Below are positions 13,615 through 45,301 of a stretch of DNA of 64,000 bases, in pieces. The translations under genes were made by a program, and so were the position numbers. Within the stretch, counting starts at the first letter, position 1. Every line of letters starts with the position of its first letter. The notes beneath the pieces are model-generated. The model had not been told where the DNA came from. It did not search any database and worked only from the letters and a program-made list of their open reading frames with translations. This DNA comes from a virus, in IMG/VR virus record IMGVR_UViG_3300047551_002099, positions 1 through 64,000 of that record; one strand, written 5' to 3'.

Positions 13615-14670
13615 ATGCCACTATCTATTGAACTTAAAAATGATAAGGAACTACTGGCAACAGACACTGTTGCTGGTAAAGAGTACATCAAAGCACCAAT
13701 TGCCCGTTTAGGTAAATGGAAACATGAAGCTTACGGTCGGGTTGAATTCTCCCAAAAAGACTTTGATGATATTACCACTAACTGGAAAAACAACGCTGCT
13801 GGATTTGAGCCTCCACTCTACCTAGGTCATCCCCGGAATGACAAGGCGTGGAGCGGCGCGCCTGCCGTTGGGTTTCTAGAAAACGTAGTTCAGGAAGGAG
13901 ATACTTTGTTTGGGCTTTACGAGCCGGTAGACAAAGAAGCCTTTGAGGAAGTTAAGAAGGGCCAGTACCGTTATGCTAGCTCCGAAGTTTATCGGAATGC
14001 TAAAGATAAAGAGACGGGTGCTGTGATTGGTACGCTGTTGACAGCCCATGCGTTAACAAACGAACCCTACTTGACTAAACTGCCGCGGGTGGAAGTAACC
14101 GAGAAGCTTGAATTTAGCAATCCTATTAACACTACTCGTTTTGTATTTTCTCAAGAATCAGCTACCTGTACAAAAGAGGTAGTAACTATAAATGCTATGA
14201 CACAAACCACCGAAGTTACGTCAGAAAAAGACACTGCTGCGCACGAACAGTTCGTGCAGCTGCAACACGAAAACGAAACCCTGCGACTTGAGCTTTCCGA
14301 TAAGAACAAGCAACTCGCAGATCTACAGGACGCTGTCGCTGCCATCAAACAAGAACTTTCCATTCATACCGAACGCGCCAAGAAGCAGGAACTTTCTGAC
14401 AAACTGGCCCGGTTGAATAAGCTGAATGTTTCTGCCGCGACCAAAGAGAAGTATTCCCAACTCTTTGCGGAAGGCACCCTTGATGCCACTGGTGAAGAAA
14501 ATATCTTTTCTTTGTTGGAAGAGTTATCTGCTGGTAACGTCCAAAAGTTCACCGATGTTCAAGGTGTTCAAGAAAAGTCTGAAGAGACCGCTGTTGAAAA
14601 CCCTTACTCAGAAACTATCCTTAAGCTCGCTGAGCGCGCCAAGGAGCTAGGTCGTGAATTTGTAATCTAG
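13615..14670 (+). CDS. Prohead protease / scaffold (Mu gpI-like)
   Basis: GKWKH, PPLYLGHP, APAVGF, GQYRYASSE, AHALTNEPY motifs of Mu-like protease; coiled-coil C-terminal scaffold; directly upstream of capsid gene. Confidence 0.85.
   Translation: MPLSIELKNDKELLATDTVAGKEYIKAPIARLGKWKHEAYGRVEFSQKDFDDITTNWKNNAAGFEPPLYLGHPRNDKAWSGAPAVGFLENVVQEGDTLFGLYEPVDKEAFEEVKKGQYRYASSEVYRNAKDKETGAVIGTLLTAHALTNEPYLTKLPRVEVTEKLEFSNPINTTRFVFSQESATCTKEVVTINAMTQTTEVTSEKDTAAHEQFVQLQHENETLRLELSDKNKQLADLQDAVAAIKQELSIHTERAKKQELSDKLARLNKLNVSAATKEKYSQLFAEGTLDATGEENIFSLLEELSAGNVQKFTDVQGVQEKSEETAVENPYSETILKLAERAKELGREFVI
14241..14257. promoter_or_regulatory. Palindrome GCACGAAC-A-GTTCGTGC (copy 1 of 3)
   Basis: Perfect inverted repeat with 1-nt centre; same 15-bp core at 25004 and 45286. 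Confidence 0.6.
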
Positions 14671-14710
14671 ACCCAGTGAATTAACTACTATTTAAGGAAA
14701 TAAGCTAAAC

Positions 14711-16003
14711 ATGCCTCAAGAGTTTCACCCCGAGATTACAGATTACCAATATATTGGCGACTTGCCTGCCCTTGGTAGTCTACAGCTAACTAAGCTAGCC
14801 CGCGGATTTGAAGTGGCGGAGATTGGTCAGTTGGATGACCTGTTCCCCAGCCAAATGATTAACGAACGGACTATCGTCATCGAACAAATCATCGAAGGTC
14901 TGGGTATTATGCCCTTGGCTCGCTTTGGTGTTCCTGGTGGCGGCTTTATTGAGCCCGACCGGATTCGTTCGATGCGCGTCACCCCGGCGGTCGTTCGTGA
15001 AGAAGATTTCATCGAGCAAGCGCTCATCAACCAACTCCGCCAGCCTGGTACCTTCAACCAGCAATGGAGCCCGACTCAGATCATTCAACAACGGGTACAA
15101 AAACTTGTTAACCGTCACCGCCGTACCGTTGACCTCTTCCGTGCCAAAACCCTACTGGGCGGCATCAGCTACACCGACCCTCGGACAGGTGTCAGCATTG
15201 ATGTCAGCACCAACATTCCTGAGCATAACCTGTTCTCTTATAAAGGCTGGAATGCTGCTGTCGCTGCTGGTACCGTCGTTAACGGCTTTACTGCTGACTC
15301 AGCGCTGACCAATGATAAAGGACGACCTGAAGCCTTCTTCTTCCGGTCTACTGACGAGCGCTTCGGTGTACCTTGGACTGACCCCAAAGCTGACCTGGCC
15401 TATACGATTCGTATGATTAAGCAGTATCTGCTCAATACGAACAAAAACCAGTTCACTGAAATCATCATGCACTCTGACTTGATGACTGTTCTGCAAGAGA
15501 ACAACCTAGTCAAGTCTTTCATGGGTCTACCCTACGCCCTTAACACCACTGGCACCCAAGCGGCCTACACCCCCGCCAACAATATGCCTCCCTCCAGTTT
15601 CCTGGTACTCGGCCCCGGCGGTGACTTAGCGTCCTTAGGTGGTCTACGGATTCGTGTGGTTAACGGGCTGTACCGTAACCCCGTCACTAACCAGATTGAA
15701 AACTGGTGGCCTGCCCATAAGGTAGCTATCGTAGCTCCGACTCACATGAATGACTCCAGCGCTCGGTTGGGTCTAACTCAACACTGCGTCGGTGAATCTG
15801 AAGACGGACAACCCGGTGTTTACATGCGCGTCAGCCCCATGAGCGCACCCCCGGCACCTCCCGGACGGGTAATGCAAATGGGTGATGCCTTCTTACCCTT
15901 TGCTATCTATCCCCACTGGATTTGTCTGCTGGATGTTTGTGAGCCTGATGAACTCAAAACCAAGATCATCCTACAAGCTGACCTGAACTATGGAACGTTC
16001 TAG
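14711..16003 (+). CDS. Major capsid protein (HK97 fold, capsid-E-like family)
   Basis: 430 aa after the protease, AAGGA ribosome-binding site; LDDLFP, LLGGISYTD..IDV, W.DP.AD and terminal LP.AIYP..I.LLDV patterns of the major capsid protein E family. Confidence 0.85.
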   Translation: MPQEFHPEITDYQYIGDLPALGSLQLTKLARGFEVAEIGQLDDLFPSQMINERTIVIEQIIEGLGIMPLARFGVPGGGFIEPDRIRSMRVTPAVVREEDFIEQALINQLRQPGTFNQQWSPTQIIQQRVQKLVNRHRRTVDLFRAKTLLGGISYTDPRTGVSIDVSTNIPEHNLFSYKGWNAAVAAGTVVNGFTADSALTNDKGRPEAFFFRSTDERFGVPWTDPKADLAYTIRMIKQYLLNTNKNQFTEIIMHSDLMTVLQENNLVKSFMGLPYALNTTGTQAAYTPANNMPPSSFLVLGPGGDLASLGGLRIRVVNGLYRNPVTNQIENWWPAHKVAIVAPTHMNDSSARLGLTQHCVGESEDGQPGVYMRVSPMSAPPAPPGRVMQMGDAFLPFAIYPHWICLLDVCEPDELKTKIILQADLNYGTF

Positions 16004-16130
16004 ACCACCGGTGTCTATACTTGTTCACTCCTCTGATAAGGTTATTGACTTGAAGAACGAGAAGATTAAGCAGGAACAACCGAATACGCTTCGCTTTCTT
16101 CAGTCAAACCTTTCTTATGGAACTTTTTAA
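15990..16130 (+). CDS. Small ORF (46 aa; alternative GTG start 16011) ending in a copy of the capsid C-terminal motif
   Basis: MERSRPPVSILVHSSDKVIDLKNEKIKQEQPNTLRFLQSNLSYGTF*; the capsid ends LQADLNYGTF*. Below the ORF-track length cut-off; fills the intergenic gap. Confidence 0.55.
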   Translation: MERSRPPVSILVHSSDKVIDLKNEKIKQEQPNTLRFLQSNLSYGTF

Positions 16131-16161
16131 CCATCATCTGATTAAGGACGGCAATAAATAA

Positions 16162-17208
16162 ATGGCTACAGTACCTTTAACTGGAACTCCTGGATTTCGT
16201 TTTTTATGGCACCTCTACCCGAGTGCCCGTAGTGGCGGTCTTAGCTACTACCCCTATTACAGCACCGTAGAGCAAGGTCTGGCTCCTAGCTGGACTCCTC
16301 CGGTTGCTTCTGGTTTGACCACGGCTCCTACTTCCTATACGGTTGCAATTTCGGCTGGTCGTGCCTACCTGGACGGTGAAATCGCTGTCTTGACCGCTGG
16401 TCAAAACGTCGTGGTTAACCCTGGTGATCCTCTGTTTGCTCCCCCGGTTAACGGCGTTAACGACTACCCTATTTACCTGAGCCCCACCCGGATTCTTCAA
16501 CCCGTGGTTAAAGGTGACACTCCTCCGACGACTTATCTGAACGGAGCTGCTATCACCGCTGGTGCCCAGTACGCTGAATGTATTGATTTCGGTGAGTACC
16601 TTGGAGCTACTGATTTCTATCAATATAACGGGACTACCTGGGCTAAATACGACCCCACCTTCGCAGCTCCGATGTTACCTGCTCAGGCTGGTAAGAACCG
16701 GATTTACGGTGGTGGTATGGTTCCTTCTGTTGGAGCTAACAACCTAACGGTTCGGGCTCAAGAGAAACGAATCTACATCGAGAACAAGTACCCCCCGTAC
16801 ACCAACTCTAACTCCAAAGCACTTCTCCGGGATGGCTGTTCCTTGGAGTTGGCTAATGTTTCTCTGTACTACTTCGTTCTTCCCCTCAGCATTAAAGTTG
16901 CCACAACGGCTAGCTCTGCTACCATTACGACTGACGCTGCTACGGCTGCCGTACTGGCTGATATGGTTGCTGCAGCTGGTAGTGTTGGCGCTCTTGCGGT
17001 CAAACTTACTGGACCTTCTGGGTTCTTCACCGGCGGTGGAGCTTCTTCTAACATTACTGCTATTAGTGGTACTAACATCACTACAGCTGCTACAGTAGTA
17101 GCTAACAACGCTGAAGTTACTCTGACCATCGAGCCCCAAACGGCTGGCCGTATCTACCTTCTAGCCCCTGCTAAATCTGCGTTGTTGGTAAACAGCATCC
17201 CCGTCTAG
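16162..17208 (+). CDS. Putative head decoration / virion structural protein
   Basis: 348 aa, Thr/Ala/Gly/Pro-rich beta protein (VAISAGRAYLDG), AAGGA RBS, follows the capsid gene. Confidence 0.6.
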   Translation: MATVPLTGTPGFRFLWHLYPSARSGGLSYYPYYSTVEQGLAPSWTPPVASGLTTAPTSYTVAISAGRAYLDGEIAVLTAGQNVVVNPGDPLFAPPVNGVNDYPIYLSPTRILQPVVKGDTPPTTYLNGAAITAGAQYAECIDFGEYLGATDFYQYNGTTWAKYDPTFAAPMLPAQAGKNRIYGGGMVPSVGANNLTVRAQEKRIYIENKYPPYTNSNSKALLRDGCSLELANVSLYYFVLPLSIKVATTASSATITTDAATAAVLADMVAAAGSVGALAVKLTGPSGFFTGGGASSNITAISGTNITTAATVVANNAEVTLTIEPQTAGRIYLLAPAKSALLVNSIPV

Positions 17209-17220
17209 ATTTAACTTCCA

Positions 17221-17823
17221 ATGCCTAAGCAAATCTTAGCTGTCGCGCCTGTCAATCTTAGAATTGCCGGGCGCGTTTATTCAATTGAAGCTGGCAAAAC
17301 TCTACCTGTGTCTGACGACGAAGCCTCTATGATTTTTGCCAGTCCCAGCTCTAGCAAGTTTAAACTTGTAGGTGACTTTATGTCAGAAACTCCAATTAGC
17401 ATTCATAACGCGGGTCTTCCTGCGTACACCCCACCTAAAACCGTAGCCCCAGACTTGGCCGCCCACAAAGATTGGGCGACGCCGTTTGTCCCTGGAACTG
17501 TTCTTGACCCAATCCTTTCCCCGGTAGCCCAACCGGTTCAAGCTGGTGAGGATTTTTTCGACGCGGTAATGGACACGGCGAGTGTTTCATTACCGCTGCC
17601 GGCCCAACAGGATACGGATTATCCTGAAGCTTCTATCGACGTTGCTCCAGAACGAACTTCAATTACTCCTGACACCCACTGGTCAAAAGTTAAGGTTCAT
17701 CTTTCCTTACTAGAGAAGGAAGAGCCAATCAACTACACGGCTGTCCAGGAAATCAAATTGATGTTCCCTAAATCTGTATCTATCCAAGCTCAGTGCGACC
17801 GTATTTTAGCCACCCAAGGATAA
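17221..17823 (+). CDS. Hypothetical protein (head/neck cluster)
   Basis: 200-aa ORF tightly packed in the operon. Confidence 0.6.
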   Translation: MPKQILAVAPVNLRIAGRVYSIEAGKTLPVSDDEASMIFASPSSSKFKLVGDFMSETPISIHNAGLPAYTPPKTVAPDLAAHKDWATPFVPGTVLDPILSPVAQPVQAGEDFFDAVMDTASVSLPLPAQQDTDYPEASIDVAPERTSITPDTHWSKVKVHLSLLEKEEPINYTAVQEIKLMFPKSVSIQAQCDRILATQG

Positions 17824-17833
17824 AGGACTGACC

Positions 17834-19603
17834 ATGGCGACCACCTTTAACTTTGAAGACCGCTTTTCCTACCCCCAACCCAACGGGATTAGCCCTGGTG
17901 TTGATGCTGAAACTGCCCAAACTTTGGCAGACGATGAAATCGAGCAGGAGTCCCCAGAGTTAAAGAGTATGGCAGCTATGGTTCGTCAATACTCGGTGCT
18001 ACTAAAGCGAAAGCGCACCCTAGATATTTTTAATGTTATTACTCAGCAGACAGACCCACGCTGCGCGTTAATTCTTTCGGCAGCGCGCCGACGCAACACT
18101 AATCTTCCGCTTTTCAAAGGGATTAACGAAGTCCGGCAGGTCATGTTCAATGATGATGCTCGTAATCCTGACCCCAACCGTCCCTTAGACCAGACGTTGA
18201 ACAACCGGTTGTTCAGTGACGGGGTTCGTAGGGCTAGTGCAGCGCTTGCAGCGTCTATTTTAATGGCAGAACTACCTGAAATTCAGCGGGAGTATGCTGC
18301 AAAAGTTGAAGAACAGGCAATTGCTGACTTAGACCGGATTATTGCTACATATGAAATTCAATCCCAGTTGCCCTCTACAGATAAAACATCTGAGCCGGCA
18401 CCAATTGCTTTCTACTTTGAGCCGCTAGACTTTGAAATAGACCCGGCCTTGGAATTAGCCGTTGAGTGGTACTCCCCGTCTATTGTTAATAACTGGACAG
18501 CTGTACAGACCTATACAGGTAAGACATCAACTTGGCATATTGTCAGCGACTTAGCTGACTCAATGAATATGTACACCAGCCAGGATGTCGATAAAGCATT
18601 GCTTGCTTCTGCTGACCTGTCTGGACCTTTACTAGGTTCTTCTTACTATCACACCTTATCTTTCTACCCCCGCAAGCCTATCAACGGGGTGCTGGGTTAC
18701 TCTATTAACGTCAAGATTGAACTTCGACCGACTGGGTCCCCCCAAGAGCCCCCGATTGTGATGGGTGGGGCTACAGCTAACGAAGCAGAAGATATTTACG
18801 GGTTGTCCCCATTTAAGTGGGGCCCTTACCCCAGTTCTATCGACACTTATCCTATCAACGGTAAGATTATCGTCCTGTACTTTGGTAAGTCGGCTGCCTT
18901 GACCCCACAGGAGCTAAACGATGCCTACATACCCACAGTACTTTACTTCCGTAATAAGATTCATTACACCGGGCAACCGACAGCTCTGCTTGACCCAGAT
19001 GACCCGCTAAGCCCCCCAGACCCTGCTAGTATTATAGAACCGCTTCAGCAGGCAACTCTCCGTTTTCGAGTTCAGCCGTGGCATCCTAATATAGCCGCGA
19101 TCGATAACCAACCTGTTGAAGTCAGTGTTCCTTTTGAGCGGCTTTTAAGCGACGGCACAATAAGCCAAGTTGATCTAGATAACAGCCGGTATTCCCAAAT
19201 CGCGGTTCAGCTACTATACGAAATGTCTTATATCGACTTGTCTACTAAAGCAACTGGGTGTATCGTTCGTAATGACCCTGTAGAGCAAGCACAGCCACTA
19301 TCTGGACTAGAGTTAGTAGCGTGGGGGATTAGCAAGTCAGTATCTCACATTGTCTTGGACGTTTTAGAAATACCCCCGGATTTAGAAATGGCAACAGGTG
19401 ATTTAACTGGCCCGAAAACCTCTTTTAGCTCCAATCCCCGCTCCCTGCGGGTGAAGGTTCAGAACGAGGCATTTGCAACAAACCCTCTTCTTGAAGCTGC
19501 CGCTACGCGGGAGCCTATTGGAGTTGTCCCCAAAGCAAATACCAAAGTATGGCGAGCCATCTTAGAGGAATCTAGCTCTGTAGAAGATTCCCGGTACTAC
19601 TAA
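17834..19603 (+). CDS. Putative head-tail adaptor (Mu gp36-like N-terminal part) with long C-terminal extension
   Basis: 589 aa; VRRASAALAASILM..EYAAKVEEQAIADLDRII resembles the adaptor helical motif; position between head and tail genes. Confidence 0.5.
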   Translation: MATTFNFEDRFSYPQPNGISPGVDAETAQTLADDEIEQESPELKSMAAMVRQYSVLLKRKRTLDIFNVITQQTDPRCALILSAARRRNTNLPLFKGINEVRQVMFNDDARNPDPNRPLDQTLNNRLFSDGVRRASAALAASILMAELPEIQREYAAKVEEQAIADLDRIIATYEIQSQLPSTDKTSEPAPIAFYFEPLDFEIDPALELAVEWYSPSIVNNWTAVQTYTGKTSTWHIVSDLADSMNMYTSQDVDKALLASADLSGPLLGSSYYHTLSFYPRKPINGVLGYSINVKIELRPTGSPQEPPIVMGGATANEAEDIYGLSPFKWGPYPSSIDTYPINGKIIVLYFGKSAALTPQELNDAYIPTVLYFRNKIHYTGQPTALLDPDDPLSPPDPASIIEPLQQATLRFRVQPWHPNIAAIDNQPVEVSVPFERLLSDGTISQVDLDNSRYSQIAVQLLYEMSYIDLSTKATGCIVRNDPVEQAQPLSGLELVAWGISKSVSHIVLDVLEIPPDLEMATGDLTGPKTSFSSNPRSLRVKVQNEAFATNPLLEAAATREPIGVVPKANTKVWRAILEESSSVEDSRYY

Positions 19604-20466
19604 TGGATTTTATCTTTCCAACGGAACGACAGGCTGTCAGGGCCTTACTTAACGCTATTGCTAACCACCGTGACGTTAAGAACGCCCCTGTTTACTTTCC
19701 TGTTTTGGTTGGAGAACGTAACGCCCCACAAAAAGTCCCTGTCGTAAGTTTTAGAACCTTTGGTGGCACTGAGTACATTGAAGATGGGGTGACCTTAGCA
19801 GTCTATCCCGTGACTAGCGGTATGGGCCTGGGTAATGCGTTGACCTATCGGGATAACGTTTTAGGGAACGTTGTAGACCCTAACTATAACGTTAAAGCAA
19901 AGCTTAAACTCGTAGTGCAGTTATTTTACCGGGAAACAACCTATAACGCCCCGTTAAAGCTGTACTCTGACGCGTCTTCCTTAACTAAAGACATTGTTAA
20001 ACTGTTGCCCTACGGTCGATTGATTAAGTTTAAAGAAGATGGCTTGGACTCAGCTCCTTTAGCTGACCAGTTACCCTTAGACCGGTTCGTGACTGAAAAT
20101 ACTATTGAAGTTAACGTCCTACCCGGCGAAGAAGTTCTTCGAGATTGGATGGCTATTCTAAGGGGCGTGATCCGGGACTTACCAGTGTTGTATCCCTTCG
20201 CTATGAGAAATCCTAATATTACATTAGTGGAGTACCAAACAAGTAACTGGTTAAAGCCCGAAATTCAAAATCTAGTTTTTCACTCAGCCTACATGGTAGT
20301 CGAATACGACTTGTTTGAACCGGCGCGGACTCCCGACTACCGCCTACCGTCTATTGGAGAGAACTTATTTGTTGAAAACGACCCTGTCGTACCGCCGGAA
20401 ATCCCACCTGTTCCTTTGTACAGCCCGCCTTTAGCTGACCCACCTTCAACCATAGATGTTATATAG
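19603..20466 (+). CDS. Putative neck / tail completion protein
   Basis: 287 aa, TAATG-coupled to the previous gene, immediately upstream of the sheath; function by position. Confidence 0.5.
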   Translation: MDFIFPTERQAVRALLNAIANHRDVKNAPVYFPVLVGERNAPQKVPVVSFRTFGGTEYIEDGVTLAVYPVTSGMGLGNALTYRDNVLGNVVDPNYNVKAKLKLVVQLFYRETTYNAPLKLYSDASSLTKDIVKLLPYGRLIKFKEDGLDSAPLADQLPLDRFVTENTIEVNVLPGEEVLRDWMAILRGVIRDLPVLYPFAMRNPNITLVEYQTSNWLKPEIQNLVFHSAYMVVEYDLFEPARTPDYRLPSIGENLFVENDPVVPPEIPPVPLYSPPLADPPSTIDVI

Positions 20467-20571
20467 TTTCTTTCTTTGTTGGAACTAATAGTCTATTTGT
20501 AAGGTAGTCATTACGAATATTACGGTTGCCGTACAGAACAGGCTTTATGTGTTTGTAGTATAGGTAAAAAG

Positions 20572-23500
20572 ATGGTAGATTACTCATTTCCGAACATTTC
20601 CTTCAACTCTAAGGTTATTGGCCCCGCACCTGTTAACCCCGGCTGGCGCGATAAATATGCCATTATCGGTGAGTTTGACCGTGGCCCTGTTGTACCTGTT
20701 CAGTCTGCAGACCGGTCTGTTTTAGCTTCCCTCTACGGGGAAGATACCAGCTCTGGTTCTATTGCACTGCAGCAGGCGATGCGCCAAGGTGCTACAAACG
20801 CTGTTGTAGCCCGTGTCGTACCCAATAGCCTTCCCTCCCAACTCTATTTTGAGATTGCTGGCGACAGCCTTTTTGTTCAACCCTCGACGGGTTACGAAAG
20901 CGCAATCGCCAACACCAACGTATTAGATACGTTTAATTACACCACCGGTTTCAAGTTCACTCTGGATTACATCGGTGAACCTAACTTTGTTAGAACTGCT
21001 TATGGCGACATCAGCAGCCGTAACCGCCCCATCGACCACCCCACCTTCAACGGTCGGGCTCAGATGAACTACATGGTTACGCGTGTACAGTCTGCCGACG
21101 CTGCCCAACGAGTTGTTTACGAAGATAGCAACGAGGTTCTTGAAGTTACTCTTCACAACAGCAGCCGCGACGACTACCAACTCGTTACTTTCGAAGAAGG
21201 TAACAACGTTTACGTTGAGCAATACCTAAAGCCCGGCTTTACCCTGCGCTCTTCCACTAGCGCTCAACAAGAAGGTCTTGTGATCGCTTGTGAACCCTAC
21301 GAATATAGTGAAGGGGTAAAAGCTGTTCTGGTTAAAGGTCACTACAGCCCGGCTAACGCTTACAGCGGCGCTGTTGTTACAACCAGCGGGCTTTACAACG
21401 TTACGGTTACTGACTTTAAGAAAGGGTCTAACGTAAACAGCCCCACCCTATCTATCCTGGCTCAATCGGTTGCCCTGGTTGGTGGCAGCGCCTATGAAGT
21501 TAGCGCCGCTGTTAACAACGGTGGGAACATTGATGTCACCTTAGCAACTAATGTAACCGGCAGCGCTAAAGAAGACGCTCCTGTTTCCTTTGTTCCTAAG
21601 GTCACCACTGTCACCTACGACTCGGTTGATAAAGTTACCGATATTACCTTGACTGGTGTCTTGGCTAACACGGACATCGCTGTTGGCAGCAAGCTAACCT
21701 TTAGTGCTAAAGATGCTTCTTACACTGTTTCGGCTATCAGCACTGCCTGGTCTTCCGGCACTGTTACTGTCGAAGTAGAAGGTGACGTTCGCGCTGGTGT
21801 CAAAGTCAAAGACTACGCTTTGGTAACGACCGCTGATTCCAACGAACAGTTAGACACCTTTAAAGTTCACTTCCCGTCTGTCACGCAGTATATTCTGGGT
21901 TACAGTCTCCGCTCCTTTGACAACAGCGCGCTGCAGTCCCGGTCTACTAGCCGCTCCTATCTGACGATTGGGTCGTCTGCTACTAAACCAGTTCGCTACT
22001 TCGATGGTTTTGTGAACTACGCTGTTGATGCTTGCCTAGTCTTCCAAGAAGGTGACGGTGGTGTTTATCATAAGATTCCTTACCTGACCGGTCTGAAGAA
22101 CCTACAAGAAGCCCAGCTTCTTGAGCGGGAGTACTTTGGGCTTGAGCTTTACTTTGGTCGTCCCAATGACCGTAAAGTTTACCTAGCTGAAACCACCATC
22201 TTTAACATTCCGCTTGTTAAGAGTGAAGCGGTAATCGGCGGTGAAAGCGGCAGTGAAACGGCTTACCCGAAAGGAACCCTGGCAACAACGATTCTTCGTG
22301 ACCTTGAGTATGCTATCTACGGTGACCCGGCCATGGCGTCCATGGTTAAGGACATCAAAGTAGATATTACGCTGCTGCCCTTTAAGTTCAGCGGGGAAGC
22401 TTCTTTTGTTGGCGTTAAATCCAACCGCCTGCGCTGGAACTTGGAACGTTATGTTGCCGGCCCTAAAGCGGTTTACTCTTCTAAGTCTGGGGCTGTACTG
22501 ACCTTTGACGCGGTGCCTGATATTATCCTGGGCAAAGAAGACGACTACAGCGTCATTATCGACGGTGTTGCCTACCCCCTGACCGCTGCGTCTTCTACTA
22601 CAGTTACTGTAGACGTTGATGATCTAAGCGTCCTGGATATTCTATCCACTGGTGACGAACTGGAGTTCCGCTCCCAAGTTCAGACCAAAGATATCCTAAT
22701 CCGTCGTCAGCCTGAAGTTGACTTCGACACTCTAGACTACGGGCTAGACAAGTTCTATCCCTTCATCAACGGTCGGGATACGGCTTCCCACGCCTACGCT
22801 GATTTCTACGCACTGAATGGTAAATCCCTGATTCGCGTCGTTGCTTTAAACCCTGGTATTTACGGCAACAACATTAAAGTCAGCATCGTCCCCGATGAAG
22901 TTACCGTTAATAGCGCTAAGTTCTACCTACAAGTAGAAGACACCAACCCTGGTGTGATTCTTGGTGGGCCTAAAACTGAACTGTGGTACCTAGACAACCG
23001 GGAAATTGACCCTGAAACTGGCGCTTACCTGTCGGTTAAGCAGTCGAACCTAGTTCGCGCTTACTTCCTACCTGTAATCGAGCCGGTTAACGTTAGCGAC
23101 TTAATCAACACGATTGATGAGTCTCTGTTCCAAGGGCTGCCTCTGCGGATTGCACCACCTTTAGAAGTCCAAGATTCGGCTTATGCCTCTGGTATCACCC
23201 GTGTCACTTCCCAAGGGGGCTCTTTCATCCGTAATGTTACCCTCTCTGGTGGAACTGAGTTTGTTGACCCTGCCCCTGACGCGGCTATCCGCGCTCGCCG
23301 GGATGGTTACCTAGCTGCTCTCCGCTCTCTGGAAAAAGAAGATGTTGCTTGGATTGCTATCGCTGGCATCTACTACGGCGACAACGACTACCAAGAAGTC
23401 TTTGACGAGCTAAAAGCGCAGTGTGAACGCGCCACCACCTTGAACGGCCTCCGTCGCGGTGTTGTGAGCCTGGCTCCTAATGTGTCTCCCCGTCAAGCCT

Positions 23501-24168
23501 CTGTCCTCCGTGACCGGATTAACAGCGACAAGATTGTTCAAATTGCTGGTTCTATCCAAGGGGTTAACCTGAACGGTCAGATTTACCAAACTCAAGGCGC
23601 TACTGGCATCTACGTTGGTCTCCGCTGCGCCCGTCCGCCCCATATCTCTACCGCTTCTACCTACAGTGGTGGTTACGCCGAAAACGTAAGTTTCAGCAAC
23701 ATCAAATCTTCTCCTGATGTGTTAGACGCCTACACCCGCGGCGGTACGGAAGTGCTCTTCTACGATTCCGGTCTGAAGCTCTTTAAGTTCTTGAACGGGA
23801 TTACCACCAGCCGCGACCCCAACAAGAAGTATGTATGTGTGCTTGAAGTTTGGGACCAAATGAAGCACGACCTTTACAACTACTTGCAGTACGTCCGGTC
23901 TGAGCCCAACACTCGCGACCTTCAAAAACGGGTTGCCTCTTCTGTAGATGCTTATCTACAACAGAAGTACCGCGACGACTGGTTCATGCGGATTGCTCCT
24001 ACGATCTGTGGGCCTGCTAATAACACCGAAGCCGATATGATTCGTGGCAAGCTGTTTATCACGGTACGGGCTACGCCTACGTTCCCTGCTGACTTCATTG
24101 TCGTTAACGACATTATGGATCTCAGCGAGACCTTCAGCTTTGAAACGCAGCCTATTAGTTCTTTCTAG
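20572..24168 (+). CDS. Contractile tail sheath protein (1198 aa, large central insertion)
   Basis: N-terminal AIIGEFDRGPV..P; ALNPGIYGNNIKVSI; LSGG; C-terminal SEPNT..L..RV..VDAYL, CGPANNT..GKLFITV..P..PADFIVV. Confidence 0.9.
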   Translation: MVDYSFPNISFNSKVIGPAPVNPGWRDKYAIIGEFDRGPVVPVQSADRSVLASLYGEDTSSGSIALQQAMRQGATNAVVARVVPNSLPSQLYFEIAGDSLFVQPSTGYESAIANTNVLDTFNYTTGFKFTLDYIGEPNFVRTAYGDISSRNRPIDHPTFNGRAQMNYMVTRVQSADAAQRVVYEDSNEVLEVTLHNSSRDDYQLVTFEEGNNVYVEQYLKPGFTLRSSTSAQQEGLVIACEPYEYSEGVKAVLVKGHYSPANAYSGAVVTTSGLYNVTVTDFKKGSNVNSPTLSILAQSVALVGGSAYEVSAAVNNGGNIDVTLATNVTGSAKEDAPVSFVPKVTTVTYDSVDKVTDITLTGVLANTDIAVGSKLTFSAKDASYTVSAISTAWSSGTVTVEVEGDVRAGVKVKDYALVTTADSNEQLDTFKVHFPSVTQYILGYSLRSFDNSALQSRSTSRSYLTIGSSATKPVRYFDGFVNYAVDACLVFQEGDGGVYHKIPYLTGLKNLQEAQLLEREYFGLELYFGRPNDRKVYLAETTIFNIPLVKSEAVIGGESGSETAYPKGTLATTILRDLEYAIYGDPAMASMVKDIKVDITLLPFKFSGEASFVGVKSNRLRWNLERYVAGPKAVYSSKSGAVLTFDAVPDIILGKEDDYSVIIDGVAYPLTAASSTTVTVDVDDLSVLDILSTGDELEFRSQVQTKDILIRRQPEVDFDTLDYGLDKFYPFINGRDTASHAYADFYALNGKSLIRVVALNPGIYGNNIKVSIVPDEVTVNSAKFYLQVEDTNPGVILGGPKTELWYLDNREIDPETGAYLSVKQSNLVRAYFLPVIEPVNVSDLINTIDESLFQGLPLRIAPPLEVQDSAYASGITRVTSQGGSFIRNVTLSGGTEFVDPAPDAAIRARRDGYLAALRSLEKEDVAWIAIAGIYYGDNDYQEVFDELKAQCERATTLNGLRRGVVSLAPNVSPRQASVLRDRINSDKIVQIAGSIQGVNLNGQIYQTQGATGIYVGLRCARPPHISTASTYSGGYAENVSFSNIKSSPDVLDAYTRGGTEVLFYDSGLKLFKFLNGITTSRDPNKKYVCVLEVWDQMKHDLYNYLQYVRSEPNTRDLQKRVASSVDAYLQQKYRDDWFMRIAPTICGPANNTEADMIRGKLFITVRATPTFPADFIVVNDIMDLSETFSFETQPISSF

Positions 24169-24237: not shown

Positions 24238-24999
24238 ATGGAATTTATCACTAGAGCCGCGGTAAACAACGCGATTTTAGACCCTCTTCAAGGTTTTGAC
24301 TGTGATGTCTACGTTCAAGACCAAGCCACTGGTAAACAGCTTATTATCGGGCGCTTCACCAGTTTTCAGTTCACGGTTCGTAATGCCACTGAGCCCTACA
24401 TGGAGTTCAACCAACGAGTAGCCCGTTTACTTGACGGTGAGTTCCAGTTTGGTTGGGTGCTAGAGCGCGGTTTAATTGACACCCGCTTTCTAGAAGATAC
24501 CTTTGGTATAATGTCCTTGTCCCGTGAGCAGCGGATTTCCCGTAGCCCCCGCTTCCAGATTACGGTTGAACTGAACGCCCCTGAACTGGCCAATCCTATT
24601 GATGGTAAAGCAACAGAAGGCGCTCAAGAGTTAATGGGCGGTGAAATTGTTGTTAACAACCGTGTGACCCGCGCTGCCACTGGTAAATATCGTCTGGTTT
24701 ATGCCAAGACTGATTCTTTTACCTTCGGCGCTATGGCTGGTCGGAATGTAATCGCTACCCGCTGGGAAGGTCTCTGTGAAGGGATTTACTACAGCAATCA
24801 AGCCGATATCTGGCCTGGTCAAACCCTTGGTAAAGGCGTTAGTGTTAACAGCAACTCGCCGACGAGTAAGACTATTCTTACTGGCCGGTCGCTGTCTGAT
24901 ACGCCTGGTAGTGCCAAAGGCCCTGAGTGGGATATTTGGGGATCTCAACTGGGCGAAGCAGCCTTACCTGACGGTGGCTCCAACGGTATTCCCGAATAA
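24238..24999 (+). CDS. Tail tube protein
   Basis: 253 aa directly after the sheath, GGAG RBS; DPLQGF, IGRFTSFQF, LERGLID patterns of myovirus tube proteins. Confidence 0.8.
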   Translation: MEFITRAAVNNAILDPLQGFDCDVYVQDQATGKQLIIGRFTSFQFTVRNATEPYMEFNQRVARLLDGEFQFGWVLERGLIDTRFLEDTFGIMSLSREQRISRSPRFQITVELNAPELANPIDGKATEGAQELMGGEIVVNNRVTRAATGKYRLVYAKTDSFTFGAMAGRNVIATRWEGLCEGIYYSNQADIWPGQTLGKGVSVNSNSPTSKTILTGRSLSDTPGSAKGPEWDIWGSQLGEAALPDGGSNGIPE

Positions 25000-25002
25000 G
25001 TA

Positions 25003-25019
25003 GCACGAACCGTTCGTGT
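25003..25019. promoter_or_regulatory. Palindrome CACGAAC-C-GTTCGTG (copy 2 of 3)
   Basis: Intergenic, starts 4 nt after the tube stop; the 17-mer is the exact reverse complement of 45285-45301. Confidence 0.65.
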
Positions 25020-25045: not shown

Positions 25046-25076
25046 AAAGCACTCTATACTAGTTATAGAGTGCTTT
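25046..25076 (+). terminator. Hairpin / probable terminator after tail tube gene
   Basis: AAAGCACTCTATA-CTAGT-TATAGAGTGCTTT perfect 13-bp stem in the intergenic region. Confidence 0.6.
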
Positions 25077-34547: not shown

Positions 34548-35063
34548 ATGGCAGCTCTTAAACACCGGTTAGACGTCTACGACAACGTTATTGGCTCTGA
34601 TGTGAAGATAGCACCTCTAGGGGATTTAGCTTTAGACCCTTTAGACTCTGATTTAAGTGTCTTAAGTGGCTCTGAAGCGCTGGGAGCGGCGGTACGCCGA
34701 CGGCTGTCTACACCGCTTACTGGCTATGGTCGTATTGTTAAAACCGCTCGGGGCTACGAGTATGTAGACGCGGACTATGGTAGTACTCTATCTAACTTTT
34801 TATCTGCCCCGATTACAGACCTGGCGTTAGATGACGTTGTTGAAGTCGTCCAACAAGACGCAAGCAAAGACCCACGCTTAGCCCAAACAGCTGCAGCCAT
34901 TACAGAGGTCAACCAAAACGGCTACGCCATCCAACTTTACTACCTACCTAAAACGGTAGACGAGTTAATCGCGCAAGGACTTACTGTTGGTAATTACGCT
35001 GAAAACACAGTCTTTAGTGCGCAAGTTGCCACTAACTATTCTTTACTGTTACCGCTTTATTAA
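34548..35063 (+). CDS. Baseplate wedge / sheath initiator (gp25/gpW-like)
   Basis: GDL..LSG.EAL..AVRRRLSTP.G..DYGS.L..FL, DPR motifs. Confidence 0.85.
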   Translation: MAALKHRLDVYDNVIGSDVKIAPLGDLALDPLDSDLSVLSGSEALGAAVRRRLSTPLTGYGRIVKTARGYEYVDADYGSTLSNFLSAPITDLALDDVVEVVQQDASKDPRLAQTAAAITEVNQNGYAIQLYYLPKTVDELIAQGLTVGNYAENTVFSAQVATNYSLLLPLY

Positions 35064-35068
35064 GACCT

Positions 35069-38721: not shown

Positions 38722-38727
38722 AACATC

Positions 38728-41700
38728 ATGGCTGTAGCAGACGATTATGAATCGCTGAGAATACCAGTATTAGAAGGTATTAATGATGACCCTCAAGAGC
38801 CTAACTATTTAGACAACGGTCGGGGGTGTAATGGTTCTTTCTTTGTGGACCGCTACAATGCACTAATCGATATTCTTAAAGGCATTCCTGAAGGTCCTCC
38901 GGGTCCTCAAGGAGTTCAAGGTAACCCAGGGCCTCAAGGTATTCAGGGAGTTCAAGGGCTTGTTGGGCCAGAAGGGCCCCAAGGAGAGCCGGGCCTAGCA
39001 GGTATTACTTGGCGCACAGGTGATGGAGTTCCCAGTGACTCCTTAGGAGTAAATAACGACTTATACCTAGACCTACTGACGGGAGACGTCTATAAGCGTA
39101 TCAATGGAGTCTACTATACCGTCCTTAATCTTATTGGGCCGGCTGGCCCAGAAGGGCCCCAAGGCGACCCTGGCTTAGACGGTTTGGACGGGATTAACGG
39201 TGCTACTATCCGGGTAGGCGGCACCACCCCAGATAATACTTTAGGTAACAACGGGGATTACTATATTGTCTCTACGTCAGGCGACTTACACCTCAAAAGT
39301 GGTGGCGCGTACTCTGTTGTAGCTAACTTAAAAGGCCCCCAAGGTATTCAAGGTATCCAAGGTATTCAAGGTATCCAAGGAGAGCCTGGAACTTCTATTA
39401 CGGTCGTCGGAACGCTTGCTAACGTGGGAGACCTCCCAGTAAGCTCTACAGTAGGGAGTACCTACTTAGTAGGTGGTTCGGGAGGAGACCTCTACGTTTG
39501 GAGTGAAAATAATACCTGGGTAAATCTAGGACCCTTCCAAGGCCCGGTTGGCCCCCAAGGTTTGAAAGGGGATACTGGCGACACTGGCCCTCAAGGTATA
39601 CAAGGTATACAAGGTATACAGGGTATACAAGGGCCTTCTGGGAACGTTTGGCGGAGCGGGCCTGTTAATCCCTCAAACGGAACTGGGGTAGATGACGATT
39701 ACTACGTCAATACTACCAGTGGGGATGTCTTTAAACGGGCTGCGGGTGCCTACGTTTTGCAGGGTAATATTAAAGGGCCGATCGGCGACCCTGGGCCTCA
39801 AGGTAACCCAGGCGATCAAGGGCCCCAAGGCCCCATCGGGGTAGCAGGGACTGTTTGGCGGAGTGCTGGGGCAGTTCCTAGTAATAGCCTTGGGGTAGAC
39901 GGAGATTATTACCTAAACACCGCCACCGGAGACGTACTCAGACGGACGTCTGGAGTTTATGTTCTACAAGGTAATATCAAAGGGCCGATTGGTGACCAAG
40001 GTATTCAAGGGCCTCAAGGTGACCCTGGCCCTCAAGGTAATACGGGTATTCAAGGGCCGACCGGGCCGGCTGGGGATAAAGCTGGTGTTAAATACTACTA
40101 CTCATCTACCACAACGGAAGGCGACCCTGGCAACGGGACGTTCCGCTTTAGCTCCACTATTCTAGGAGCGATTACCTACCTTTATATTGACAACGCGGAT
40201 TTTAATAACACTAACCAGACAGCTTGGTACAATGCCTGGGATGATTCTACCTCTACCATTAAGGGCCAGCTCTACGTTACAGGTAACACCGGCGGCAGCG
40301 CGGCGATGGCAGTGTTTAACATCACTGGGGATGTCATTATCGCCTCTGGCTACTACAAGGTGCCAGTTTTAAACGTTACTGGCACGCTACCCGCTAACGG
40401 GGAGGTATGCACGATTACCTTTGTGCCGGCAGGCTATAAAGGTGACCAAGGCATCCAAGGTATTCAGGGAATCCAAGGAGAGACAGGCACTCAAGGGCCC
40501 CAAGGTAACCCAGGAGTTAACGGAGCTACCGGGCCAGCCGGCGCGACAGGAGATAAAGGTGGTATTAAATATGTCTACTCCACGACAACCACAGACGCTG
40601 ACCCTGGCAGTGGAATATTCCGGCTGAACAACGCGACGGTGGGCAGTGTCACTTTTATCTATATAGATAACGTGGACTCCGGCGGGGTCTCCCGAACGAA
40701 CTGGTATGACACCTGGGATGACTCAACTTCTACAACCAAAGGGCATCTCTACATCGCAGCTAACTCATCTAGTAACGCAACTCAACTGGTTTATAACGTT
40801 ACTGCGGTTACAGTAGCTACTGGGTACTACAAGATAGCGGTCAGTTACGTCAGCGGGGTTAACACCTTAGCAAATAATGATGCTTGTACCTTGACCTTTG
40901 TGCCTACTGGAACAAAAGGAGATACAGGCCCTCAAGGGACTCAAGGGATTGAAGGTCCAGCTGGCGCTGGTGGCCTCCGAGTTGGTCTACGTTATAACTT
41001 CTCAACCATCACTAATGCCACCGGTATTGCGGCAGGAACGATTCGGTACAACAGCTCAACAGTAAGCTCTGTAACAGTATTGTTCATTGCTAATACCGAC
41101 GTTATGGGGCTTACCCAGAACACTTGGTTAGCCGGGCTAGATGATTCGTCGAATACTAATAACCGGGGGCTCATCACCATCATGGGAGCTGACCCAACTA
41201 GCAACACTGCAACAGTCTTTAAAGTAACCGGGGTTGCTACTGTTTTCTCAACTTATACTTCTGTAGCGGTTACCTACGTTTCTGGCACCCGGCCTGCGGA
41301 TGCACAAGCATTAGCAGTTGAATTTAGTCCAGCAGGAGACCTTGGTCCTACTGGCCCCGATGGAGCTACCGGGCCAGCCGGGCCGGCAGGCCCCGCGGGG
41401 ACTACTGGCGCCACTGGGGCTGATGGCGGCTGGCAGAGTGCCCAAACAGTAACGACCTTTACCGCAAGTGGTAACCTGACGGCTACCCACGTTGGGCACC
41501 TAGTCAGAAGCAACTCGGCTTCAAACATTACGTTAACCATTACTCAGTTCACTCCAACTACTGGGGTTCATATTGACTTAATGCGTTACGGCACCGGTGG
41601 GTTAACGATTGCTGCCGCGGCTGGAGTAACGATTCGGAGTGTAGCCAGCTATCGGGGTCTAAACTTCCAATACTCCTGTGCGTCTCTAGTCCACCTGGGA

Positions 41701-41739
41701 AGTAACGAATGGCTATTGGCTGGAGACCTTAAAGCATAG
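38728..41739 (+). CDS. Collagen-like tail fibre
   Basis: 1003 aa; multiple Gly-X-Y runs separated by repeated globular modules; C-terminal [16 protein letters not shown] fibre tip motif. Confidence 0.85.
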
Positions 41740-41742
41740 ACT

Positions 41743-42666
41743 ATGCCTTACACCATCGGGTTCCACAAGTTTAATCCTCCTTACTGGACGGCACAAGAAG
41801 TCTTCAATGAAGGCGGGTCTATCAGCCTGTGGTTATCTGGAAACACTGCTGATAATTATCAAGGAACGCTACCAACGACTATTACTAAAGACGGGGCGGG
41901 TTATGTTTCTGCTTGGTCTAGTAGTTGGGGCGCAGCAGTAACAAACGCTGGTGGGTCGTCTGTAAAACCATATGTTGTTGGGGGTAACCCTTATATAACT
42001 TTCCCTAACAACACATTCCTAAACGTGGGGCAAGAGGTAGTCATTAACCCCTTGACGACGTCTAGCCCAGCGAACAACATCGCTGCCTTCTTTTTAGTAG
42101 TTAGCATAAACGCGGCGTACTTTGGATATAACAAAAGCTGGTCGTTGCTTGCTTCTTATAATGGTTCTAACCCTAACTACTTCCATTCATTTGCGTATCT
42201 ACAATCCGACTCGACCGACCGGTTTTGGTTTGGTCAGCGAGCTCAAACAGCAACAGGCTCTGGGCAAAATATTCAGAGTCAGATGTACAGCTCTAATTTA
42301 ATTTTTAATGATAAATACACTCTTATTACTGGCTTCATTAATAATAACAGCTCAACCTTCCAAGCGTCGTCCTATTTCTATAACGCTGACGGTTACGGAA
42401 ATCTAGTAAGTCAGACTACTAACATTACAGGAATACCCTCAGCTAACTACGGTAATCTGACCGCTACCACCTTAAATACCATTCCTGGTGGGGATGCGAC
42501 TACTTTAGGGCTAACCAGCTACTTTAACTGTCACGAACTTTTACTAGCTGACCTAACCTACTCCTCTAATCTATTCACAAAGGTGGAGGGGTCTATGGCT
42601 TGGAAGTATGGGATTCCTCTACCTAACACTCACCCCTACTATAGCTCTGCTCCTTTACTTGTTTAA
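41743..42666 (+). CDS. Tail-fibre-associated lectin-like (LamG/ConA-like) protein
   Basis: SLWL..VSAW start, AFFLV, and C-terminal VEGSMAWKYG..LP..HPY..AP motif seen in phage fibre-associated proteins; Asn/Ser/Thr/Tyr-rich. Confidence 0.6.
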   Translation: MPYTIGFHKFNPPYWTAQEVFNEGGSISLWLSGNTADNYQGTLPTTITKDGAGYVSAWSSSWGAAVTNAGGSSVKPYVVGGNPYITFPNNTFLNVGQEVVINPLTTSSPANNIAAFFLVVSINAAYFGYNKSWSLLASYNGSNPNYFHSFAYLQSDSTDRFWFGQRAQTATGSGQNIQSQMYSSNLIFNDKYTLITGFINNNSSTFQASSYFYNADGYGNLVSQTTNITGIPSANYGNLTATTLNTIPGGDATTLGLTSYFNCHELLLADLTYSSNLFTKVEGSMAWKYGIPLPNTHPYYSSAPLLV

Positions 42667-42671
42667 TTATT

Positions 42672-43478
42672 ATGGCTGTATCTCCAATCGTTATACTAGG
42701 TGACCAATTTACAGGTAGCGGCTCTGATGACACTACCCAAGGTTTTCGTAAGTACAACACACACGTTCATAGTGAAGCCCGGGTCACTGACTTTCTAGCC
42801 TACGACGTGGCAATGGCAGACCCAGTTTATCTATATAACGTTGACGACCAGCTTGTTTACAACACCATCACCCCGCCAGAGATTACCTATCTTTCTGCTA
42901 CCCAACTTAGGTTAAGCACTACGGTTAATCAAACCTTAACAGACACGGTTCTTTATGTAAAAGCGCCGAAGGAAGAACCGGAAACCGCGGTTGTCATTCG
43001 GGGAGTCACGATTGAAGCAGGGTCCAATATTATTGAATTCACTGGTGATTTATCCAGTGGGTTTATCGCGGACAGTCAACTCCAAGCGCTATCCGCCGAC
43101 CAACTTAACCATACATTTACGATACCGTCAGGGGTGGCTAACTATACCTACCCGTTGGTTTTCCCCTCTGCTAATAAAACTTGGGTACGCTCCCTAGCTA
43201 TTGCGTCTCACCACGGTAAAGGGATTTACCAACTTATAGCCAAGCGGGAAAACCAAGAACGGCTGTTGGTGGACATTGACATCCAAAACCCTGGTGTTAT
43301 CCACAACGTAGACCTTACCGATGCTAGTGTTGACGGCTCAGTCTTTAGTTATCCTAATAACTTACTGCCCAGCCCGCTAGATGAATATAGCTACTTAAAC
43401 TTTAAGGTTCTCCAAACAGAGCCGACTATAAACCATGTTGTAGTTAGTCTCTCTTTGGAAATTCAGAAGGTACTATAA
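42672..43478 (+). CDS. Hypothetical virion protein
   Basis: 268-aa beta-rich ORF in the operon. Confidence 0.6.
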   Translation: MAVSPIVILGDQFTGSGSDDTTQGFRKYNTHVHSEARVTDFLAYDVAMADPVYLYNVDDQLVYNTITPPEITYLSATQLRLSTTVNQTLTDTVLYVKAPKEEPETAVVIRGVTIEAGSNIIEFTGDLSSGFIADSQLQALSADQLNHTFTIPSGVANYTYPLVFPSANKTWVRSLAIASHHGKGIYQLIAKRENQERLLVDIDIQNPGVIHNVDLTDASVDGSVFSYPNNLLPSPLDEYSYLNFKVLQTEPTINHVVVSLSLEIQKVL

Positions 43479-43480
43479 CA

Positions 43481-45262
43481 ATGGCAGGGTTAGATAACTC
43501 CTTGGACTTCAGCAACTTTTTTGAAGAGTTAGCTGCTGAAGTCCGACAAGAATACTCAACTGACTGCGCTGCTACCAATATCATGGAGTTCCTTGAGAAC
43601 GAAGTGGATATTACCAGCTGGTTAGGGGAAGGGGGAAGTTTAACACCACAACAAAGAACCATTTTAAAGATTTACGATGGGCTTGAGTTAGACGATGACG
43701 AGCTGGCACTGGTAGAAGCTTGGAAAGCACTAGATAGGACAACCTACGACTTTGAGTTAGGGCCTAAGTCACGGCAAGCTTTTGTGATGGAGGCAGGGCG
43801 CAGCTCAGGAAAAAGTTTTTTAGGTAGTATTATCTTGGGTTACGAGTGGTATAAGCTTTGCATGATGCCTAACCCCCAAGCGTTTTTTGGAGTAGCTGCA
43901 TCTACCCTTATTTCTATCTATTGCTTAGCCCCGTCATCTACCCAAACCAAGAAAACCATCTTTGGGATTTCTAAGGCATTTCTAAACTATATCCCTAAGA
44001 TTAAACGTCTAATTGATAACAAAAGTATCGTCGTTGGGGAAGAAGAAATTAAGTACCCTGAAAAGCTACTGTACATCTACGCCGGGAACAGCAAAGGGAG
44101 CACCCAGGTCGGTAGCCGTGTCATTCTAATGGTTATGGATGAGGTAGCTCGTTTTGAGTCTAAAGATGGGGACTCTAACGCCTTGGAACTATGGTCTAAC
44201 GTAGGGGTGTCAGGTATCACCTTTGGGGAGTTTGCTCGACGGGTAGCTATCTCTTCAGCGTGGGAAGAAGGTGACGCTATTCAAAAGCTGTGGAATGCCT
44301 CTAAGTTAGAAGACTCTTGGATTGGTTTTCGTTTTCGTACTTGGGACGTTAACCCCAAAATGGATAGGGACAACCCTATCATCGCTTCGGAGTATAACTT
44401 AGACGCATCTAATGCAAAGCTTGAGTTTGAAGGTGACCGTTCAGCCAATGCCTATTCTTTCTTTGCTGAGCAAGAGGTTCACCGAGCCTTCAGAGGTCGA
44501 GTACGTTGTGATATTCAAGTGATGCCATCGTTAGGTGACGGGCTGATCCGCTTGGAAGCAAAGTCCGTTGAGCAGTTCAGCGGGTTGACCTATATGCACT
44601 TAGACCCGGCGGTAGTGCGGGATGCTTATGCTATGTGTTTTGGCCACGGGGAAACCAACAGCGGTGGTCAAAAGATTGTAGTCATAGATGGACTCGCGGC
44701 TTGGGAGCCTAAACCAGGAGAAGTTGTTAGTTTATTAAACGTTTATGACATTATTTATAGTATTCATGGTCAGCGTCCAATACATAAAGTAACCACTGAC
44801 CACGCGCAACAAGCAGAGACAATTCAACGACTACGGATGAATGGGCTGAACGCCAGCAGTCTATTCTTTTCCAACCGGCTGCAAGTTGAGATTTACGATG
44901 CCACTCGTAAGCTGTTACATGAAGACCGACTGATTCTGCCTAAGGACTCCCCCTGGTCAAACTTGCTGCGCCACGAAATGATGACCATTCAGTACGACCG
45001 GCAGAAAAATAAGATTTACCATAATCCCGATTCCAGTAAAGACGTTCTTGACTGCCTATGTTCTGTGGTTTGGCATATCGCTGGCAACCAAATAGGTAGC
45101 GCTAATTCTGTTGTTATTTCCAAACGGCAGACTCTATTTAACCAAGCAATGGATAAGTTCGGTCGGACAGTAGACGATGATGATTTTGTCACTAGCCGCC
45201 GGGAGGTCGTTAGAAGCGCCCGTACCGTAAAAAGCGGGCTGTTTGACGAGTACGATTTTTAG
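43481..45262 (+). CDS. terL: Terminase large subunit
   Basis: LTPQQ adenine-binding motif, Walker A AGRSSGKS, Walker B MVMDE, coupling motif ISS, nuclease acidic residues HLDP..DAYA and SKDVLD. Confidence 0.9.
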   Translation: MAGLDNSLDFSNFFEELAAEVRQEYSTDCAATNIMEFLENEVDITSWLGEGGSLTPQQRTILKIYDGLELDDDELALVEAWKALDRTTYDFELGPKSRQAFVMEAGRSSGKSFLGSIILGYEWYKLCMMPNPQAFFGVAASTLISIYCLAPSSTQTKKTIFGISKAFLNYIPKIKRLIDNKSIVVGEEEIKYPEKLLYIYAGNSKGSTQVGSRVILMVMDEVARFESKDGDSNALELWSNVGVSGITFGEFARRVAISSAWEEGDAIQKLWNASKLEDSWIGFRFRTWDVNPKMDRDNPIIASEYNLDASNAKLEFEGDRSANAYSFFAEQEVHRAFRGRVRCDIQVMPSLGDGLIRLEAKSVEQFSGLTYMHLDPAVVRDAYAMCFGHGETNSGGQKIVVIDGLAAWEPKPGEVVSLLNVYDIIYSIHGQRPIHKVTTDHAQQAETIQRLRMNGLNASSLFFSNRLQVEIYDATRKLLHEDRLILPKDSPWSNLLRHEMMTIQYDRQKNKIYHNPDSSKDVLDCLCSVVWHIAGNQIGSANSVVISKRQTLFNQAMDKFGRTVDDDDFVTSRREVVRSARTVKSGLFDEYDF

Positions 45263-45284
45263 TTTAGGTTGAGAGTAGTAAGCC

Positions 45285-45301
45285 ACACGAACGGTTCGTG
45301 C
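45285..45301. promoter_or_regulatory. Palindrome CACGAAC-G-GTTCGTG (copy 3 of 3)
   Basis: Intergenic after terL, ending immediately before ATG 45303. Confidence 0.65.

Follow-up and report, generated by a model that had tools for sequence, protein, structure and literature searches.

The palindrome and its genes

The DNA described here belongs to the virus record IMGVR_UViG_3300047551_002099, a fragment of the genome of an uncultured jumbo myovirus. The window, that is, the whole stretch of 64,000 nucleotides that was analyzed, covers the first 64 kb of an IMG/VR contig of 79,810 bp (G000). It contains three exact copies of a 15-bp palindrome, CACGAACNGTTCGTG, whose arms are invariant and whose centre base is A at 14242-14256, C at 25004-25018 and G at 45286-45300. 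The copies had been picked out in a first-pass annotation of the sequence, which placed them in the scaffold gene, past the tube gene and past the large terminase gene (terL), and considered a chance origin very unlikely. Positions, arms and gene contexts all prove correct, and 100 shuffled windows with preserved dinucleotide composition yield zero matches. No variant with one or two mismatches occurs in the window. A fourth exact copy lies beyond it, at contig position 77921.

The copies and the genes that frame them (ORF, open reading frame) are as follows:

10631-12106, Mu-type portal
13615-14670, plus strand, Mu I/Z-like protease-scaffold ORF, which hosts copy 1 and has an in-frame internal ATG at 14197
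14241-14257, copy 1, GCACGAAC-A-GTTCGTGC, intragenic, in the protease/scaffold linker of ORF 13615-14670
14711-16003, major capsid protein
20572-24168, sheath, with the Pfam sheath C-terminal domain
24238-24999, plus strand, tail tube, following the sheath ORF and upstream of copy 2
25004-25018, copy 2, CACGAAC-C-GTTCGTG, 4 nt past the stop of the tube ORF 24238-24999 and followed by TTTAGTT
25046-25076, plus strand, second hairpin, AAAGCACTCTATA-ctagt-TATAGAGTGCTTT, unrelated to the motif, in the same spacer as copy 2
43481-45262, plus strand, large terminase (PHROG terminase large subunit, E 1.5e-19), upstream of copy 3
45286-45300, copy 3, CACGAAC-G-GTTCGTG, 23 nt past the terL stop and 2 nt before the ATG at 45303
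45968-69568 of the contig (45968-64000 in the window, and beyond), right giant ORF of 7,866 residues

Distribution and conservation of the motif

The conserved unit is a 13-bp core, ACGAAC-N-GTTCGT, which often extends to 17 bp. In a census of palindromes with 6-7-bp arms, no other was found more than once in the contig or in its closest relative, G001. Relatives were found by a query with the tube protein (ORF 24238-24999), and more carriers came from 17-mer scans of IMG/VR. G001 (216.6 kb, tube 75% identical) is colinear with the contig and has six core copies, two of which read GCAC...GTGC and four TGAC...GTCA. In G006 (196.9 kb, capsid 59% identical), 11 copies are exact and seven have one mismatch, and in G007 (72.8 kb, capsid 50% identical), three are exact and one has a mismatch. 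The metagenome contig L160, whose scaffold protein is 88% identical, retains copy 1. The scan of the whole contig and its relatives that the first-pass annotation had called for has thus added a fourth copy and further carrier genomes. The exact counts (4, 6, 11 and 3 in the contig, G001, G006 and G007) compare with 0.004-0.013 expected per genome, and the carriers hold 11 one-mismatch copies versus about 1 expected.

The core motif is absent from G002-G005, whose tubes are closer to that of the window than are the tubes of G006 and G007, and it is also absent from Ma-LMM01 and the Microcoleus phage. The 17-mer scans of other IMG/VR viral contigs gave single matches at about chance level, and so did a 15-mer scan of IMG/VR among the matches listed. 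The motif forms a lineage-specific family in uncultured cyanophage-like jumbo phages, and it is wider than the three copies of the window.

Across 25 sites, the twelve positions of the core never vary, while the centre base can be any of the four, with no bias toward the sense strand. Nothing is conserved outside positions ±8, and the sites have no orientation. The flanks are of the GCAC type in the contig and L160, of the TGAC type in G006 and G007, and of both types in G001. Such a difference between genomes is the pattern expected from the co-evolution of a site and its factor.

Placement relative to genes

Gene boundaries were taken from crude ORF calls around the 24 exact copies of the four genomes. 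Sixteen copies are intergenic, although only 7.9% of the DNA is non-coding (P ~1e-12); the sites are thus strongly enriched at gene boundaries, and clearly not scattered at random with respect to genes. All the intergenic copies lie between co-directional genes, half of them at most 8 nt past the upstream stop codon, and the distance to the next start codon ranges from 3 to 183 nt. The coding copies fall in two reading frames, one giving HEQFV or DERFV and the other ARTVRA, which shows that the signal resides in the nucleotides. Scans for promoter and terminator consensus sequences returned counts equal to the shuffle level. In G001, a third giant ORF (103066-115785, minus strand, 4,239 residues) carries a motif copy about 230 codons in.

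Origin and turnover of the copies

Copy 1 is read in frame as CAC GAA CAG TTC GTG (HEQFV); it stands 454 nt before the capsid ATG (14711) and 45 nt after the internal ATG (14197). Its orthologues are GTTGACGAACGGTTCGTCAAC in G001 and CACGAACAGTTCGTG in L160, and run X4 has the same sequence as the G001 type. Distant relatives have only GAACAGTTC (codons E-Q-F) at this place, with no indel. Copy 1 arose in place, an ancestral GAACAGTTC having acquired substitutions. In the comparison of the contig with G001, the two arms have changed jointly (GC..GC to TG..CA), so that the stem is kept and lengthened; the protein has changed from HEQFV to DERFV (H to D, Q to R) while the symmetry was retained. 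A contig from an RNA library (13928-15123) runs straight through copy 1, which is weak evidence, as contigs only are available. The host ORF resembles the nested I/Z arrangement of Mu, and AAGAGG precedes its internal ATG at 14197. The RNA-library contig begins at 13928, and contig depth is raised from there through the capsid gene.

Copy 2 ends 72 nt before the next ORF, a putative hub, and its local RNA fold has an energy of -8.3 kcal/mol (z -2.0). The hairpin at 25046-25076 (13-bp arms, in the spacer that follows the tube gene) is conserved in position downstream of the tube: past its own tube gene, G001 keeps a covarying hairpin, AACGCTCTAT...ATAGAGCGTT, with compensatory changes, and lacks the motif. 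The arms of the window hairpin, GCACTC...GAGTGC, are reminiscent of CIRCE half-sites, with a different spacing.

Copy 3 directly precedes ORF 45303-45962, which in turn precedes the 7866-aa giant gene. Its hairpin, taken by itself, has little stability (-5.2 kcal/mol, z +0.9), and G001 has a different palindrome, GAGGTAGCTACCTC, at the same place. Copy 4 has 14-bp arms, lies downstream of a minus-strand tRNA/tmRNA cluster and falls in an indel of ~45 nt relative to G001. A 9-nt central indel separates copy f of G001 (TGAC-GAACGGTTC-GTCA) from the corresponding TGACGTCA of the contig, and copy f abuts a non-homologous downstream gene. At contig 77489-77492, two small genes overlap as ATGA inside TGACGTCA; at G001 206634-206650, the same junction holds the 17-bp motif in full, and the stop codon is formed by its first three bases. 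This difference may reflect the deletion or the insertion of a palindrome centre. The small protein encoded next to copy 4 and next to G001 copy f has an apparent homologue beside a G007 copy, which turned out to be a chance likeness.

Copy 1 is the only orthologous site among the contig, L160 and G001, and no site position is common with G006 or G007. Since the carriers have capsids that are only 50-59% identical and share almost no positions, the word is held in trans.

Genomic context

The nearest isolates are phages of Microcoleus and Microcystis, according to protein searches (capsid identity 27-30%). A megablast search against isolated phages returned no match, a search of GTDB genomes for a host or a prophage returned remote Mu-like matches only, and an Rfam scan of the window matched no family. 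The phage is present in a freshwater metatranscriptome (run X3). The contig encodes two giant ORFs, including that of 7,866 residues. In this right giant, PHROG domains similar to a baseplate hub/peptidase and to a lipoprotein are found near residues 5913-6076 and 6766-6878, and a glycine-zipper motif is the sole match in the first 4,000 residues. The ORF at 38728-41739 encodes a 1,003-residue protein with collagen triple-helix repeats, probably a fibre; within the ORF, GTATAC-N3 units form a short tandem run at 39596-39622.

A proposed site for a dimeric protein, or a possible hairpin

From the conservation, placement and turnover of this family of sites, we infer, tentatively, that the motif is a duplex DNA site for a putative dimeric protein that acts at gene boundaries. 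This reading is the first in rank and its probability is somewhat short of even. The half-site, YRACGAAC or GCACGAAC, would be read by a putative sequence-specific factor of phage or host origin, which would most likely bind the duplex as a homodimer. The sites would occupy the few non-coding bases available at boundaries, often the tips of terminator hairpins and occasionally coding linkers that tolerate them. The bound factor may then act on a polymerase crossing the boundary, as a roadblock or as an aid to termination, in the way of the repressor sites of Cluster A mycobacteriophages.

The main rival, less probable but a serious contender, is that the motif functions as a hairpin formed by RNA, by single-stranded DNA or by extruded DNA. 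The conserved six-pair tip would be recognized by a factor specific for both structure and sequence, or the hairpin would act by itself as a terminator, an attenuator, a 3'-end protector or a processing site between cistrons. Perfect pairing extends beyond the core by 4-11 pairs in 8 of the 24 copies, two of them intragenic, compared to 4 of 180 control palindromes (Fisher 4e-6). Canonical terminators, made of a stem and a U-tract, are found at G001 23576, G006 57961 and G006 62008, the last of which has a U-G pair on the sense strand. Terminator features are partly present in copies 2 and 4, and absent from copy 3, the coding copies and most of the short-stem copies. The stability of copy 4 (-23 kcal/mol, z -5.6), the location of half of the intergenic copies so close behind a stop codon and the joint change of the arms at the scaffold site, where the protein changed as well, also argue for a hairpin. 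Similarly, the covariation score is 0.230 versus 0.113 in shuffles, and none of 500 shuffles scores as high. Coverage in the RNA library drops past the tube gene, which again is weak evidence from contigs only.

Several observations favor the duplex over the hairpin. In 16 of the 24 copies there are at most two extra pairs, and the RNA hairpin of the bare core is marginal: at -5.2 kcal/mol, it is not better than shuffles. Wobble pairs and A-C mismatches occur without preference for the sense strand. In G006, 6 of the 11 sites combine half-sites of different types, and the YRACGAAC rule for the half-site alone accounts for most of the outer pairing at ±7 and ±8. Mutation alone, through template switching inside a palindrome, can also produce symmetric changes of the arms. 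The RNA-library contig crosses copy 1, and a generic terminator would not need an invariant sequence.

The sister genome G002 is devoid of the core but contains another dyad, TTGTAY-N-RTACAA, in 15 copies, most of them 1-11 nt past stop codons. This dyad shows no stem extension and no hairpin stability. As it is placed like the motif and yet cannot form a stable hairpin, a duplex site fits better. Copies of the G002 dyad (loci L301-L311) are found, for example, at 18578, 84126 and 147761, and one abuts the ATG of the protease-scaffold gene. A separate repeat array of G002, spanning ~20 kb (176390-196750), consists of eight clustered copies of GGGCCC-N5-GGGCCC whose flanks, themselves repeated, contain GGGCCC. 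The weakness of the bare hairpin, the lack of a sense-strand bias, the mixing of half-sites, the one-mismatch copies and the G002 dyad together place the duplex site first and the hairpin second.

Other results weigh against a duplex site. The long perfect palindromes around a third of the copies are not needed by a plain duplex site, and pairing is kept at ±7 in 23 of 25 sites and at ±8 in 22 of 25. At no site is there a fixed distance to a promoter-like element or to a start codon, and the partner search identified no binding protein. The operator for a dimeric regulator that the first-pass annotation had proposed thus survives in part: the perfect dyad, the free centre, the lack of orientation, the one-mismatch copies and the conservation in trans make it the leading reading, whereas the regulator itself is missing and the sites keep no set distance from promoters or start codons.

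Candidate partners

Phyletic profiling was used to list the genes that are present in G001 and G006 and absent from G002-G004. About 18 genes co-occur with the motif in this way; they include a sigma-70 factor, Bro-N, the small subunit of ribonucleotide reductase, a ferritin-like protein, several unknowns and tail fibres. The sigma-70 gene is full-length (regions 1.2, 2, 3 and 4), at 84900-85907 in G001 and ~117822-118034 in G006, and the Bro-N genes follow the same pattern. Candidate readers common to G001 and G006 are the sigma-70 factor, three Bro-N proteins and unknown proteins of 485, 255, 251 and 87 residues. With only five genomes compared, these genes cannot name the reader and, as a further point against the duplex reading, all of them, tail fibres included, may simply track a common host. 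A host-encoded factor could also be the reader.

Two known types of dispersed sites were considered and rejected. Centromere sites of the parS/ParB type do not fit, the ParB N-terminal domain PF02195 being absent from G000-G004, the genomes in which it was searched (not G006 or G007). An element of the REP/RAYT type does not fit either: the Y1 transposase PF01797 is not found in G000, G001 or G007, and G006 alone has two genes. These two IS200/IS605-type genes lie at 4388-4729 (minus strand) and 167514-167870 (plus strand); their regions share almost no DNA, and a motif copy (3512) is near the first only.

Less probable readings: recombination repeats and hairpin promoters

It is rather improbable that the copies are primarily recombination or cassette-boundary repeats, similar to the promoter-stem-loops of T4-type phages, or that they represent a small selfish palindrome which propagates through copy-paste or gene conversion, with no more than secondary effects on expression. 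Some copies share asymmetric flanks (TGACGAACGGTTCGTCAAC three times in G001, ...GTTCGTCAAGAGAG twice in G006, ATTTG...CAAAT in G007), which such a history would explain, as it would the ~45-nt indel around copy 4 and the 9-nt indel of G001 copy f at a non-homologous gene junction. In G006, a Bro-N gene is flanked by two terminator-type copies. Repeat-mediated indels have been reported for Cluster O phages (PMC4351075) and T4-type phages (PMC2839356). The scaffold copy, in contrast, arose in place from GAACAGTTC with no indel, no mobilizing enzyme is common to the carriers (the Y1 transposase is restricted to G006), and a repeat without function would not hold 12 invariant bases across genomes whose capsids are 50% identical.

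The other half of the first-pass proposal, DNA hairpin promoters of the N4 type read by an injected virion RNA polymerase, is very improbable: a short stem closed by a three-base loop could form, but the sites are dispersed over 80-217 kb instead of clustered at the first-entering end, some copies are found within late structural genes or between them (scaffold, tube, terminase), the loop is C-N-G with any centre base, and there is neither orientation nor anything conserved downstream or otherwise beyond ±8. No Pfam or PHROG match to a polymerase, T7-like or other, was detected in the left giant (3,072 residues in the window) or in any part of the right giant, a weak negative because N4-type enzymes are very divergent.

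Comparison with known systems

The finding is real and non-random, and its kind is already known. The closest published analogue is the 17-bp repeat TGTTCGG-NNN-CCGAACA of Cluster O mycobacteriophages, whose function is unexplained and for which a dimeric protein is suspected (PMC4351075). Both have invariant inverted arms (7-bp in Cluster O), a free centre and no meaningful orientation. Both occur as many dispersed copies in short intergenic regions and in coding sequences, with a few one-mismatch variants, are absent from other phages, and are linked to indels. The spacer is however 3 nt in Cluster O versus 1 nt here, the sequences are unrelated, and 34 copies are found in 70 kb there versus 4-11 in 80-217 kb in the core carriers. 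The embedding of copies in long hairpins or terminators is not reported for Cluster O, and the host phylum and the phage type differ. The motif thus resembles the Cluster O repeat in that its inverted arms do not vary, its centre is free, its copies are dispersed over coding and intergenic positions and it is restricted to a lineage, but the likeness is in kind only.

Two other systems may be regarded as partial functional analogues. The stoperators of Cluster A mycobacteriophages are dozens of near-identical short sites located in short intergenic gaps of long operons; a single phage protein reads them and halts the elongating polymerase, and sites and protein co-evolve between lineages (PMC9283540, PMC6550527). 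Stoperators are asymmetric sites that follow the direction of transcription and bind a monomeric repressor, whereas the motif described here is a perfect dyad without orientation. A stoperator-like system of multiple repressor sites was rejected, the sites being symmetric and unoriented and no repressor having been identified. The promoter-stem-loop (PeSL) cassettes of T4-type phages are also repeated intergenic stem-loop motifs at gene boundaries, where they mark the places of gene gain, loss and swap (PMC2839356, PMC4122927). They are longer composites of promoter and terminator, found in variable regions only; here there is no promoter part, and some copies are intragenic.

The promoters of the N4 virion polymerase, a T7-like enzyme, are conserved from -17 to +1 and have a three-base loop with a sheared G:A pair (PMC4496689). 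The small DNA stem and the three-base loop are the only likeness, and every defining feature that was tested is lacking here.

In terms of layout, the motif resembles the 7-1-7 operators of the Fur family, 15-bp dyads with two 7-bp arms and one free base, which are AT-rich and differ in sequence; no Fur-like gene turned up, though no search was aimed at one. The promoters of the N4 type are few, clustered at the first-entering genome end upstream of early genes, and have a central purine in the loop. Dispersed invariant palindromes have been reported in phages before but, to our knowledge, none has a known reader or function.

Significance

What is new here is the conservation of such a motif across deeply diverged uncultured jumbo phages, together with the rapid turnover of its sites, one of which evolved inside a gene. 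Many sites are at the tips of terminators, and in a sister lineage another dyad is placed in the same way. A bolder proposal, which we consider a long shot, is that the phages use a punctuation code: lineage-specific dyads of 13-17 bp behind stop codons (ACGAAC-N-GTTCGT in the carriers, TTGTAY-N-RTACAA in G002) would be read, as hairpin tips on nascent RNA or extruded DNA, by one fast-evolving factor. This factor would set where the transcription machinery of the phage, with its sigma factor or a possible injected polymerase, stops or restarts. Such a system of termination, if real, would be both sequence-specific and factor-dependent, and would evolve together with its sites.

With this combination of features, it becomes possible to find the partner protein through phyletic profiling and binding assays. 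The identity of the reader would show how very large phages divide the transcription of 60-kb co-directional gene arrays.

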